Below, in pieces: positions 761 through 6,815 of a DNA stretch of 64,000 nt. The notes beneath the pieces are model-generated. The model saw only the letters and a program-made list of their open reading frames with translations. It was not told where the DNA came from and made no database searches. Within the stretch, counting starts at the first letter, position 1. Each line of letters begins with the position of its first letter. Source of the DNA: Myxococcales bacterium (lineage in GTDB: Bacteria > Myxococcota_A > UBA9160 > SZUA-336); the NCBI GenBank assembly GCA_013215565.1, contig JABSQV010000029.1, positions 29,219 to 93,218 on the forward strand, in the 5' to 3' direction. A program made the position numbers and the translations under genes.

Positions 761-1255
761 CTACGACTCGCGTCCGCGGCGAAGGGCGATCTCCGAGACC
801 TTCGGGTTGCCGCGGCTCCAGGTCAGCGTGAGCGTGACCTTCCGGAGCTTCCAACCCGCGGGCGTTCGGACCAACTCGTTGGTGTAGTAGCCGCCGATCG
901 TCCAGCGATCGCGCTCGCCGTCGCCCACGAAGTGTTCGGCCTGCATGTTCGAAACACAGCTGGCCTGGTCCCCGCGAATGTCGTGAACGTGGTTCGAACT
1001 GGTGTGCTGCGTCGCCGTGAAGCCCGCAAACAGTTCCCGGGCGCGCTTCACCCAGTCATCGGCCCGGCGAATCCCCGCGCGGATTCCGACGGACTCGAAG
1101 TCGAGCTCGATCTCGTCGGTGAAAATCGAGCGGTAGAGTTCCCAGTCCTGGCGATCGAGCCCGGTCGCGTAGCGGTGGAGCACATCGCTGATCTCGGCGC
1201 GGTCCAGCAGTTCCCGGAGACCTGGATCCACGACGGGGGCGTCTGCGTCAGTCAC
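761..1255 (-). CDS. SnoaL-like / NTF2-family protein
   Basis: LRELLDRAEISDVLHRYATGLDRQDW...TQHTSSNH...GGYYTNELVRTPAGWKL is a SnoaL_4 pattern. GTG start at 1255 overlaps the upstream stop. Confidence 0.85.
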   Translation of the reverse strand: MTDADAPVVDPGLRELLDRAEISDVLHRYATGLDRQDWELYRSIFTDEIELDFESVGIRAGIRRADDWVKRARELFAGFTATQHTSSNHVHDIRGDQASCVSNMQAEHFVGDGERDRWTIGGYYTNELVRTPAGWKLRKVTLTLTWSRGNPKVSEIALRRGRES

Positions 1256-2141
1256 TCCGGGCTCTGCCTTCGCTCCGGGCTCGCTGCTGCTCTGCCCGGC
1301 GACGCTCGCCGGCTCGGCGCAGCCTGTCCGCCTGCTCGGGATCGACGCGCGCGTAGCGCTCCTTCCAGGAGGCATCATCGCTCCAGCGCGCCGGGTTCTG
1401 GACGGTCGTTCGAGGCAGGGTTGCGGTCTCGAACAAGTCGAGCGCGAAGCCCAGGCTGCGGCGCTGCATCTCGACGCCCCAGGGTCGCCCGAGGGGATTG
1501 CCGAGCGGGAAGTCGCTGAACAGGAAGCGCGGTACCCCGCACTCCTCGACGATGTCGCGCGCGGAACCCGCGATCACGGTCGGAATCCCGTGGGCCTCGA
1601 GGTGGCGTGCGACCAGACTCACGGTCTGGTGGCAGACCGGTCAGAGCGGAACCAGCAGCGCCAGATCGGCCGCGTCCTCGCGGCAGCGCCTGAGAATCTC
1701 GGGTGCATCGAGATCGGTCGTCCGGCGCTGGCTGTAGTCGGTCGGAACGCCGTGAAAGCGCCCGGCCAGGCCGCCGATCCGGCCGGCGATCGCGCACTCG
1801 CGCAGGTGGGAGAGCGGGAGGAAGGAGGCCACGTCGTCGGTGTGGGTCGCTTGCTTATCCCAGGCCAGGTCGTCGGTGTAGAGCCGGTCGGGGAGTTCCG
1901 AACTCGCGCCGGACCAGACCTTCTTGCTCCCCCGAAGCGAGCCGGGATCGTGTCCCGCTTCGTGCCAGGGGCTGGCGGTGGTGATCAGCGACAGGCGCGA
2001 ATCCGCGAGCGGTTTCTGGAGCCGCGCGAACGGAACCTCTTCGAAGTGGGCCCACTGGTAGGGGCGCTCGTAGCCCTGGGCGCGGTAGAACTCGCGCGTC
2101 CGGTCGATGTAACTCACGAAGGTGCGGTGCGACGTGGTCAA
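1248..2141 (-). CDS. Glycine/sarcosine/betaine reductase selenoprotein B-like protein (Sec at UGA 1641-1643, UxxC motif)
   Basis: ORFs 1641..2141 and 1248..1622 share a frame. Read-through gives LALLVPL-U-PVCHQTVSLVARHLEAHGIPTV...PRFLFSDFPLGNPLG (GrdB-like). GGAGG RBS before the TTG start; hairpin just 3' of the UGA. Confidence 0.85.
1608..1634 (-). promoter_or_regulatory. Bacterial SECIS-like hairpin
   Basis: On the minus strand after UGA: TGC-C-ACCAGAC-(CGTGA loop)-GTCTGGT-C-GCA. The apical loop starts 17 nt after the UGA and contains G, matching bacterial SECIS geometry. Confidence 0.7.
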
Positions 2142-2234
2142 CGCCTGCCCTCCAGTTCTCCTCGAAGTTCGCCGCGAGGATACCGCGTTTCCGAAGTGGA
2201 ATCTGCCTCCCGTCAGGTACGATTCCCGAGCGGC

Positions 2235-2900
2235 TCAAGCCAGGAGCAGCTGCTCTGTCGCGATCACGAAGCGGATCCGGTCGGGCTCCAGGAAGTGGGC
2301 TTCGTCCGCCCGCGTGCGCGCGTAGGCCTCGGAAGGCTCGGAGGCTCGCAGCGCGTCGGTATCTTCGAACCACGCGATCGGAATCCCGTCGTAGAGCGGC
2401 GCTCCGAACCGCGCGTCGTCCCGGGCGTGGTATTGCAGATAACGCCGCATTCCGGGGATCCCGGCCGCGATCGGTCCGTGGCGATCGTGCCAGTGGCTGC
2501 TGAAGCGCTCGCGCGAGAGGTCGTGCCGCCGGGTCAGGAACGAGATCAGCTTCACCCCGTCGGCGGGTGCGGGGCCGTCGACGATGGTGTGCGGCTCGAC
2601 GCGCAGGATGCGGACGCCTTCGGGCGCAAGCAGTTCGGCCTGGTCCGCCTGTGCGGCCGCCATCTCGGAGGACGCGCCGGCGCGCTCGAAGTCCTCCGCA
2701 TCGTCGAAGCAGAGTTCCGCCACACCGTCGTAGATCGGGCTGCGCGCGCGGTAGCCCGAGAGCAGCGTGTGGTTTTGGACGTAGCGGCGAAGTCCCGGGA
2801 TCTTGCACGCGAGTTCCGCGTGCCGCCCGCGCCAGTGCTCCTGAAAGGCTTCCGGCGAAAGCCCATCACGCCGCTTGAGCACCGCCAGGATCTGGAACAT
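2235..2900 (-). CDS. EthD-family protein (two tandem EthD domains)
   Basis: Two copies of (K/T)RRxxLSxExFxxHWxxRH...IPG(L/M)RRY.Q.H...YDG(V/I). Confidence 0.85.
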   Translation of the reverse strand: MFQILAVLKRRDGLSPEAFQEHWRGRHAELACKIPGLRRYVQNHTLLSGYRARSPIYDGVAELCFDDAEDFERAGASSEMAAAQADQAELLAPEGVRILRVEPHTIVDGPAPADGVKLISFLTRRHDLSRERFSSHWHDRHGPIAAGIPGMRRYLQYHARDDARFGAPLYDGIPIAWFEDTDALRASEPSEAYARTRADEAHFLEPDRIRFVIATEQLLLA

Positions 2901-4911: not shown

Positions 4912-6122
4912 TGGTGCCGCATCGCTTCGACCGGCCGGATCAGCGCCGCCTTGAAGGCCGGGAAGAGCACCGCGACCGCTACGATCAACACCAGCAGTCC
5001 CACCGGGCCCGTGAAGGTCTCGGGACTCACGACGCCGCGCCAGATCGGGTTCATCGCAACGCCCATGACGGTTACCCCCGCGAGGCTCGCGATGTTGAAG
5101 CCCTCGGTCGAAAAGTAGTAGAGCGCCGGGAGGCTGAGAGCCAGGCCGCACGCAATCGCGATCCCCGCCTGGATTGCACTCTCGAGTAGAATCAGGACCA
5201 GCACCTCGAGCGGGCTCGCGCCCAGCGCCTTGAGCACCCCGAACTCTCGGACGCGCTCGAACACGGCCATCAGCATCGCGTTCAGGATCAGGATCGCGAT
5301 TGCGATGTAGACGATCAAAAAGATGGCCAGGATCGCGGCGCGCGCCGATTCCAGCATCGAAGCCAGGGTGGGCATCAACTGCTTCCAGGTCCGGACGTCG
5401 AGTGTACTTGCCACGCCGCTCACCTTTAGGGCCGCGGCCGGAAGCGACAGGCCCACCGGACGTCGCACGATGATCTGGTGTGCGCCGGCCGGGACCACCA
5501 TCAGCTCGCGAAAACTCTCCTCGGTCATGAACACGCCGGTGCGATCGACCGCGGCGCTCATGCTTCGCAGCGTGCCTCGCACCTCGTAGAGGTCGTAGGC
5601 CATGCTCCCGTCCGCGCCCTGGCTGAGGACGAGAAGTTCGTCTCCGACTTTGACCGCGAGCGTCCGGGCCAGGCGTTTCCCGAGCACGACGCCGCGCGGA
5701 TCGGCGGGATCGAGCCAGCGGCCCTCGGCGATCTCCTCGTGAATGCGGCTCACGCGCGCGTCGCGTTCAATGTCGATCCCGCGAAACGAGGCCCCGGCCG
5801 ATGCTTCGTCGGCCGCCGCCAACCCGAAGCCGAGCAGGCGCGCGCTTGCGGGAAAGCCCGCCTGCGCGAGCGGCTCGAGCAGCGCCTCGGGATCCTCGAT
5901 CCGCGTGTAGAGCGAGGGATTCTCGCGGTAATCGCCCGCGAAGATCTGAATGTCGCCGACCTCGAGGTCGACGATGTTCCGCTCCATGTCGCGCAGGTAG
6001 CCCTGGAGCAGGCTCGAGTAGAGGATCATCACGAAGAGTGCGAAGGTCATGGCCGCGATCGTGACGAGCGTCCGGCGCCGGTTCCGCCAGACGTTCCGCC
6101 AGGCCAGCTTGAACACGTCCAT
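4908..6122 (-). CDS. ABC transporter permease (LolC/FtsX-like)
   Basis: LAWRNVWRNRRRTLVT...MAVFERVREFGVLKALG...PAFKAALIRPVEAMR. Confidence 0.9.
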   Translation of the reverse strand: MDVFKLAWRNVWRNRRRTLVTIAAMTFALFVMILYSSLLQGYLRDMERNIVDLEVGDIQIFAGDYRENPSLYTRIEDPEALLEPLAQAGFPASARLLGFGLAAADEASAGASFRGIDIERDARVSRIHEEIAEGRWLDPADPRGVVLGKRLARTLAVKVGDELLVLSQGADGSMAYDLYEVRGTLRSMSAAVDRTGVFMTEESFRELMVVPAGAHQIIVRRPVGLSLPAAALKVSGVASTLDVRTWKQLMPTLASMLESARAAILAIFLIVYIAIAILILNAMLMAVFERVREFGVLKALGASPLEVLVLILLESAIQAGIAIACGLALSLPALYYFSTEGFNIASLAGVTVMGVAMNPIWRGVVSPETFTGPVGLLVLIVAVAVLFPAFKAALIRPVEAMRHQ

Positions 6123-6230
6123 CCGAGCTTTCCTCTTCCATCGCACCGAACGCTGAATCCGAGCCGCATCCTATCTCAATGGGCCGCGCGCGCGTGCCGG
6201 TCGCTGGGCGAGTCCGAGCTGAGGAGCAGG

Positions 6231-6815
6231 ATGGGGTATTCTGGAATCCTGGTGAGACACGAGATCGGTCGCGCATTCGGAGCCGGTTCCCGTCCGCTCC
6301 CGGCGAGCGGGCTGGTACGGGGCGCGCTCGCCGCGCTGCTCGGCCTGTTCTTGCTCGGAGCCGACGCGCAGCTTGAACGCTTCCCTGCTCGACTGATCGA
6401 CATCGACGGGAGCCCGATCGACGTGTCCGCGCTCGCGAGCGAGCGACGCCTGATCGTGGTCACGCTCAAGGCCCCCTGGTGTCCCGTGTGTGCGCGTCAA
6501 CTCGCGCGTCTCGAAGGGCTGAGTGCGGCGCTCGAGAACTGTGGCGCGACCTTTCTGGTCCTCTCACCGGGGCCGGCCGATCGCATCCGCGCCGTGCGCG
6601 AGGCGACCGGCTTCCAGGCGCGCTACGTAGAGGATCGCGACCTCGCGATTGCGCGTTCGCTCGGGCTCGAGCTCGCGCCGGACCAGATCGTACCGTCTCT
6701 GCTCGCGATCGATTCCGAGCGCGCCATCATCTGGCAGCAGCGAGGTCGAAGCGGAGTTTCCTACGGAGACGGAAGGCTCCAGCGTTACCTCGGCTGTGAG
6801 ACCGCCCGCACCTAG
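6231..6815 (+). CDS. Exported redoxin / AhpC-TSA thioredoxin-fold protein
   Basis: GAGGAG RBS before ATG 6231; hydrophobic N-terminal segment; KAPWCPVC CxxC motif. C-terminal part of ORF 5478..6815. Confidence 0.7.
   Translation: MGYSGILVRHEIGRAFGAGSRPLPASGLVRGALAALLGLFLLGADAQLERFPARLIDIDGSPIDVSALASERRLIVVTLKAPWCPVCARQLARLEGLSAALENCGATFLVLSPGPADRIRAVREATGFQARYVEDRDLAIARSLGLELAPDQIVPSLLAIDSERAIIWQQRGRSGVSYGDGRLQRYLGCETART

Follow-up and report, generated by a model that had tools for sequence, protein, structure and literature searches.

An in-frame UGA joins two reading frames of a Myxococcales genome into one gene for a predicted PrdB-like selenoprotein

The window analysed here is a stretch of 64,000 nucleotides from a Myxococcales bacterium (assembly GCA_013215565.1, contig JABSQV010000029.1, positions 29,219 to 93,218 of the forward strand). 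Near its beginning lie two open reading frames (ORFs), 1641..2141 (166 codons) and 1248..1622 (124 codons), which share one frame on the minus strand. The joint between them is a TGA at 1643-1641 of the minus strand (TCA at 1641-1643 on the plus strand). A reading made from the letters only, referred to hereafter as the sequence-only reading, had joined the two ORFs through this UGA into the motif L-U-P-V-C, and translation bore this out. The read-through product of 2141..1248 (minus strand) is 297 residues long with U (selenocysteine, Sec) as residue 167, in the context ...LLVPL-U-PVCHQTVSLVARHLE..., and the motif around residue 167, L-U-P-V-C-H-Q-T, is of the U-x-x-C type.

The gene as a whole (1248..2141, minus strand; 297 codons plus the stop, with one in-frame UGA) was delimited by translation, by tblastn and by full-length homologues. 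A ribosome-binding site, GGAGG at 2153-2149, was read from the sequence and is separated by a 7-nt spacer from the start codon TTG at 2141-2139 (site and start together 2139..2153, minus strand). This TTG is the earliest possible start downstream of an in-frame stop, and the N-terminus that it gives lines up with the starts of the homologues in the alignment. The true stop is a second TGA (1248..1250, minus strand). It is overlapped by the following gene, whose GTG start lies at 1255-1253 and is in frame with the SnoaL_4 ORF 761..1378. Judging from the sequence, it is very probable that 2141..1248 is a single intact gene in which the UGA would be recoded by means of a hairpin just downstream, the product being a selenoprotein of 297 residues that belongs to the PrdB/GrdB 'selenoprotein B' superfamily. 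The assignment of the UGA (1641..1643, minus strand) to Sec at residue 167 of the U-P-V-C motif is based on cysteine (Cys) in homologues and on TGA in orthologues, and both were followed across genomes.

The sequence-only reading had expected homologues with Cys at the aligned position. A word-indexed protein search recovered 5845 relatives among 8000 candidates scored. Nearly all of the best 120 are about 281-377 amino acids long and 55-61% identical to the query over more than 90% of its length, and full-length Cys homologues of the window protein have about 290 amino acids. Alignment A1, made of the query and 14 full-length homologues picked from these best 120, has Cys at residue 167 in all 14 homologues, within an invariant L-C-P-V-C-H-Q-T block. 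At the nucleotide level codon 167 is TGT or TGC in the Cys-form loci (L086, L101 and L116-L136). An in-frame UGA paired with Cys in homologues is the pattern by which bacterial selenoprotein genes are recognised. Residue 217 (codon at about 1493-1491, minus strand) is Leu in the window protein and a near-invariant Cys, in G-N-P-C-G, in the Cys-form homologues of A1. This residue is Cys in 62 of 84 Sec forms; because the other 22 have a hydrophobic residue or Thr there, Cys217 is not essential, and Leu217 was dropped as an oddity of the window protein.

Orthologues keep the TGA itself. When the window's own genome and 40 relatives were searched in six frames, 29 of these 41 genomes gave matches, and 75 of the 78 match rows contained at least one TGA; the three TGA-free rows were partial matches that leave residue 167 uncovered. 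The exact position of the TGA among these matches was checked for 12 loci and for a paralogue in the window's own genome. The 12 loci, which are the window's own copy and its 11 best orthologues (67-84% identity), all have TGA at the codon aligned to residue 167, and single tblastn alignments of orthologues run unbroken across it. A scan of one genome per GTDB species yielded 585 relatives; among the best 80, codon 167 was TGA in 78 and TGT in 2. Carriers of the TGA were Myxococcota or 'Deltaproteobacteria' metagenome-assembled genomes (MAGs), Burkholderiales, Pseudomonadales, Chloroflexota, Syntrophales and Reyranella. The closest of the best 80 loci are the Myxococcota/'Deltaproteobacteria' MAGs (up to 73% identity), which makes it most likely that the window's genome is itself a Myxococcota MAG, and one carrier, Reyranella aquatilis KCTC 52223 (locus L111), is in culture.

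Two side observations concern the size of the family. The paralogue in the same genome (C8:1285-2082) is 31% identical to the window protein and has a TGA at the same aligned position, in the motif U-P-Q-C. The PrdB-like family is also expanded in the 40 relatives, where the count reaches 7 matches in a single genome (G007).

A hairpin of the selenocysteine insertion sequence (SECIS) type follows the UGA (1612..1630, minus strand), with ACCAGAC at 1630-1624 pairing with GUCUGGU at 1618-1612 around the loop CGUGA at 1623-1619; it is assigned on conservation and covariation. The sequence-only reading had described the same stem and loop and had placed the hairpin 17 nt downstream of the UGA. The hairpin is present as described, but the figure of 17 nt applies to the apical loop, which begins that far from the UGA; the stem starts 10 nt past the UGA. 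E. coli fdhF is the type of bacterial SECIS elements. Such elements have a small apical loop with a guanosine (PMC1088965), and the distance from UGA to apical loop is given as 16-37 nt (PMC10778597). The window hairpin resembles them in its place, inside the gene and immediately after the UGA, in its small G-containing loop and in its distance of 17 nt, which falls within the range. It differs from them in having no sequence similarity to any curated RNA family.

Comparison of Sec-form and Cys-form genes separated the two classes clearly. For the Cys-form comparison set, genes were taken from the bacterial family to which a Bradyrhizobium MAG belongs. Of 83 distinct Sec-form sequences, 73 form the complete stem of 7 pairs, vs 2 of 23 Cys-form sequences, and the mean hairpin energy is -8.7 kcal/mol in Sec forms vs -3.3 in Cys forms. 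The 19-nt hairpin is near-invariant among Sec forms, synonymous sites included: the His codon is CAC in 81/83, Thr is ACC in 82/83, Val is GTG in 82/83 and Ser is AGT in 80/83, the remaining three having Gly GGT in place of Ser AGT, which lengthens the stem. Cys-form genes encode nearly the same peptide (H-Q-T-V-S-L-V) with drifting codons; their Ser codon is AGT in only 3/23, AGC being the commonest (10/23) among several others.

Covariation pointed in the same direction. Among 79 aligned Sec-form sequences, the stem pair of columns 21-31 is G-C 73 times, A-U 5 times and G-U once. Among the rows with A-U are those of Reyranella, locus L111 of R. aquatilis included, and of related alphaproteobacterial records, in which Gln CAG has changed to CAA together with Leu CTG to TTG. 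The tested structure pairs 83.1% of cells; with the partners shifted by 1-3 columns the figure is 27-46%. The suggestion of the sequence-only reading that a SECIS-type hairpin stands just 3' of the UGA is thus upheld by conservation with covariation.

Three genomes of the Bradyrhizobium genus, among 101 searched, hold a Cys-form orthologue. One of these genes (L086, the same as L115) has TGT at codon 167 together with the full SECIS-type hairpin, AGT Ser codon included, and the other two (L139 and L140) have TGC and a hairpin that is partly decayed. The Bradyrhizobium-genus orthologue looks like a recent conversion from Sec to Cys.

The genome has the means to insert selenocysteine, as the sequence-only reading had implied. 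The assembly that contains the window has 3.8 Mb in 154 contigs and is 91.1% complete. In it selA (516.8 bits), selB (284 bits), selD (334.6 bits) and selC, the gene for tRNA-Sec (71.4 bits), were all found above their curated cut-offs, and ARAGORN also called a tRNA-SeC with anticodon TCA. The selD gene (C71:168828-169751) has one in-frame TGA of its own, and the selenophosphate synthetase is probably also a selenoprotein in this genome.

Several results weigh against reading the locus as a recoded gene with a functional SECIS element and a PrdB-like enzyme as its product. The 71-nt fold taken alone has z = -0.76, and 41 of 200 shuffles fold equally well; because the hairpin alone is no more stable than shuffles, the functional case rests on the comparison across genomes. 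In that comparison most of the Cys-form set belongs to a single paralogous subfamily within one bacterial family, and its rows are therefore not independent; shuffle statistics are inflated by kinship among the sequences. Conservation is limited to the 7-bp upper stem. Below it, the helices of the single-sequence fold lack pairing in some 40-60% of sequences and were rejected as part of the SECIS. An Rfam search at E ≤ 10 over 1450-1800 returned three chance matches and no SECIS family. In a wider alignment (A3, 25 sequences) Cys167 is at least 90% conserved and not invariant. Lastly, the catalytic mechanism put forward below is taken over from PrdB.

What kind of protein the gene encodes was judged from curated profiles. 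Pfam recognised no family in the read-through protein (a lone 12-bit match to Prok-RING_2 is a chance match), and there was no match to Pfam GRDB (PF07355) at E ≤ 1. The best NCBIfam match was PrdB TIGR04483 (E = 2e-18), at 66.7 bits far below the equivalog cut-off of 300. Weaker matches were, in order, GrdH, GrdF, the umbrella family TIGR01918 (15.2 bits vs a cut-off of 65.45) and GrdB TIGR01917 (13.2 vs 602.2). By these sequence scores the predicted protein is nearer PrdB than GrdB within the selenoprotein-B superfamily and is a member of no curated family. 'GrdB-like', the term used in the sequence-only reading, holds at the level of the GrdB/PrdB superfamily and can be refined within it: the match to PrdB is the stronger, and both scores are below their cut-offs.

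The similarity to PrdB of Clostridium sticklandii and Clostridioides difficile extends over residues 38-238, which align with positions 20-219 of the 238 in TIGR04483, and the window protein has the Sec of the U-x-x-C motif (U-P-V-C). It differs from PrdB in two parts of the predicted model, an added segment at the N-terminus and a long helix at the C-terminus, in having no prdA, prdH or prdC context at the gene, and in its hosts, whose genomes are not those of amino-acid fermenters. The likeness to GrdB, GrdF and GrdH (TIGR01917, NF040794, NF040795 and PF07355) is confined to the C-terminal third of GrdB (about 275-417 of 431), which aligns with residues ~94-234 at only 13-20 bits; the first ~270 residues of GrdB have no counterpart. 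The motif of GrdB is U-x-x-C-x-x-C (review PMC13188914), whereas the window protein has U-P-V-C-H-Q-T.

These results bear on the possibility that the gene encodes a genuine subunit B of D-proline or glycine reductase, the enzymes of Stickland metabolism, which would act with a pyruvoyl subunit, PrdA or GrdE, and for glycine also with GrdA. The top curated matches are indeed PrdB, GrdH, GrdF and GrdB. Homologues among the best 120 relatives, several of them from Bradyrhizobium, bear the public names 'glycine reductase' or 'D-proline reductase (dithiol) PrdB', and the U-x-x-C motif is held in common (PMC13188914). Yet every score falls short of its cut-off, the motif departs from that of GrdB, and neither PrdA/GrdE (PF09338 and TIGR04480) nor GrdA (PF04723) was matched in the 91%-complete genome, searches which had no positive control and so indicate 'not found' and not 'absent'. 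PrdA was thus found neither beside the gene nor elsewhere in the genome. None of the annotated neighbours is PrdA-like, and clustering of ORFs over 82 loci revealed no conserved neighbour, the top neighbour family being present in 13. We regard a true reductase subunit as very unlikely. Because no PrdA/GrdE was found and no neighbour family is conserved, the window protein looks like a stand-alone PrdB-like U-x-x-C enzyme and not a proline or glycine reductase subunit.

An AlphaFold model built with 25 sequences (predicted local distance difference test score 88.1, predicted template modelling score 0.89) is an alpha/beta domain that is Rossmann-like. In the model a strand (160-164) leads straight to a helix (168-183), which would place U167 and C170 at the beginning of the helix, where redox-active C-x-x-C/U-x-x-C pairs are usually located. 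A profile search of solved structures gave no match at E ≤ 1, and Foldseek gave none against the PDB at E ≤ 0.001. A wide search with VIA-align returned no folds beyond generic alpha/beta ones, Rossmann-like or of LacI type (best Z = 9.2, root-mean-square deviation 4.3 over 141 residues); because this Z is within the range that the tool calls common, no function was drawn from it.

It could also be supposed that the TGA is a real stop and the locus a pseudogene, or two small genes of which the second starts at GTG 1622. This is in effect the version of the gene callers. The window gene's own 166-residue N-terminal piece (P0003) is on record in the protein collection, and its presence among the listed matches indicates that the caller halted at the TGA, much as the sequence-only reading had foreseen in expecting gene callers to mis-annotate the locus. 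Of the 150 best representatives in the library, 23 have their own C-terminus exactly at query residue 166, and 18 have their start at 169 or 175. These pieces are Sec-form genes split by the callers. The TGA occupies the position of the catalytic Cys in all 12 close loci and in 78 of the 80 from across phyla, with both halves conserved in frame, and a pseudogene would keep neither the position of the TGA nor two conserved halves. The conserved GTG is the loop codon of the hairpin (82/83), which explains its conservation without a second start, and the genome has the full Sec machinery. A real stop is thus most improbable, more so even than a reductase subunit. Equally improbable is read-through of the UGA as Trp, Cys or Gly by near-cognate suppression or an altered code, for which there is nothing specific beyond the fact that sequence cannot separate read-through alone from Sec insertion, and which is contradicted by the gene's own TGA stop (TGA is therefore not generally reassigned), by tRNA-Sec, selA, selB and selD, and by a hairpin that co-occurs with TGA and decays in Cys forms.

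The gene is therefore best described as a PrdB-like selenoprotein gene, and its family is not new. Several surveys describe it under another name. In the Sargasso Sea study of 2005 (Zhang, Fomenko & Gladyshev), 'Proline reductase (PrdB)', with U-x-x-C, was the third most abundant known selenoprotein family, with 42 genes and 1 Cys homologue (PMC1088965). The Global Ocean Sampling analysis of 2008 counted 235 Sec and 110 Cys forms of proline reductase PrdB in 38 samples (PMC2398784), and in a 2006 genome survey Anaeromyxobacter dehalogenans and Geobacter uraniumreducens both have 'proline reductase' in their lists of selenoproteins (PMC1794560). A 2026 review still places the family under D-proline reductase, TIGR04483, with U-x-x-C (PMC13188914).

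The window gene shares with the family, as these accounts portray it, homology to PrdB, U-x-x-C, a SECIS hairpin after the UGA, Cys homologues and abundance outside clostridia. Anaeromyxobacter and Geobacter were then counted in Deltaproteobacteria, and the closest relatives of the window gene are Myxococcota MAGs. It differs in that the surveys file the family under proline reductase, whereas in the window genome no PrdA was found and the PrdB cut-off was missed widely. By the surveys' descriptions the window gene belongs to the survey family 'proline reductase PrdB', a match made by description and not by sequence alignment. No paper was found that pairs 'PrdB-like' with 'selenoprotein'; the name in print is 'proline reductase PrdB'. 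The 'hidden' selenoprotein of the sequence-only reading was accordingly hidden from gene callers, while its family has stood in selenoprotein surveys since 2005.

The window gene, which gene callers have wrongly split, is a genuine but ordinary member of a selenoprotein family already catalogued. For annotation this means one gene in place of two hypothetical ORFs or a pseudogene, an error that is repeated often in public collections. The case adds nothing new on selenocysteine recoding. Its interest lies in the family, a very common environmental selenoprotein labelled 'proline reductase' that nevertheless occurs without PrdA in organisms that are not amino-acid fermenters. Domain fusions, described below, and the cultured carrier R. 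aquatilis KCTC 52223 are starting points toward the family's substrate.

By analogy with known systems, the protein is proposed to be made and to work as follows. The 7-bp hairpin with its G-containing 5-nt loop would recruit SelB carrying Sec-tRNA(Sec), as known bacterial SECIS elements do. In the finished enzyme the selenolate of Sec167 would be the nucleophile, as in PrdB; Cys170 would resolve the adduct with formation of an Se-S bond, which a thiol reductant would then re-reduce. In proline reductase, the pyruvoyl group of PrdA binds D-proline, whose alpha-carbon is then the target of the Sec in PrdB (PMC11229817). The window enzyme would work without a pyruvoyl partner of the PrdA/GrdE kind.

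The genes next to the selenoprotein gene are co-directional with it. Upstream lies a gene for an EthD-domain protein (2235..2900, minus strand; Pfam PF07110, 2.4e-30) and downstream one for a SnoaL_4-domain protein (761..1255, minus strand; Pfam PF13577, 4.3e-29). The EthD gene adjoins the orthologue in 1 of 91 loci searched, that of the same-genus genome L024, and the SnoaL_4 gene is likewise kept beside the orthologue only in L024. A MacB-type ABC transporter also flanks the window gene. In a separate look at the contig that took in the 8 kb preceding the window and the window's first 3000 positions (C77:21219-32218), a co-directional catabolic cluster was seen downstream of the gene, with SucC-like and SucD-like CoA ligase subunits, a luciferase-like monooxygenase, a beta-keto acid cleavage enzyme (BKACE), a 3-hydroxyacyl-CoA dehydrogenase and a cytochrome P450.

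A search for longer proteins found 17 fused Cys-form relatives with 42-51% identity to the window protein (among P0271-P0287, P0123, P0124 and P0126). An AMP-forming acyl-CoA synthetase is N-terminal to the PrdB-like domain in 11 of these, an APH/fructosamine-kinase domain is C-terminal to it in 4, and the other 2 are fused to a family III CoA-transferase, one of them (P0287) looking frameshifted. N-C-P-V-C-H-Q-T is kept in all aligned fusions. The acyl-CoA synthetase, kinase and CoA-transferase partners suggest activated carboxylates as substrates, and the stand-alone PrdB-like selenoproteins might then be a separate enzyme class acting on carboxylates activated as acyl-CoA, acyl-AMP or acyl-phosphate. 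The selenolate would in that case attack the carbon beside the activated carbonyl, instead of that of a pyruvoyl-bound amine. The co-direction of the window gene with the genes for SucCD-like CoA ligase, BKACE and 3-hydroxyacyl-CoA dehydrogenase speaks for this idea. The want of a conserved neighbour across the 82 loci speaks against it, and since CoA-related genes occur within 4 kb in only 18 of 80 loci, we hold it as a tentative proposal that is rather doubtful. In the neighbour search over these 80 loci, the row of the kinase-fusion query P0274 was discarded, as that query matched every locus through its own PrdB-like domain.

One further feature of the window was seen in passing. At 5478-6815 on the plus strand lies a long ORF whose AhpC/TSA (redoxin) domain is confined to the final third (residues 308-418) and which runs over the MacB-like gene of the opposite strand; the real gene there is probably much shorter than the ORF.

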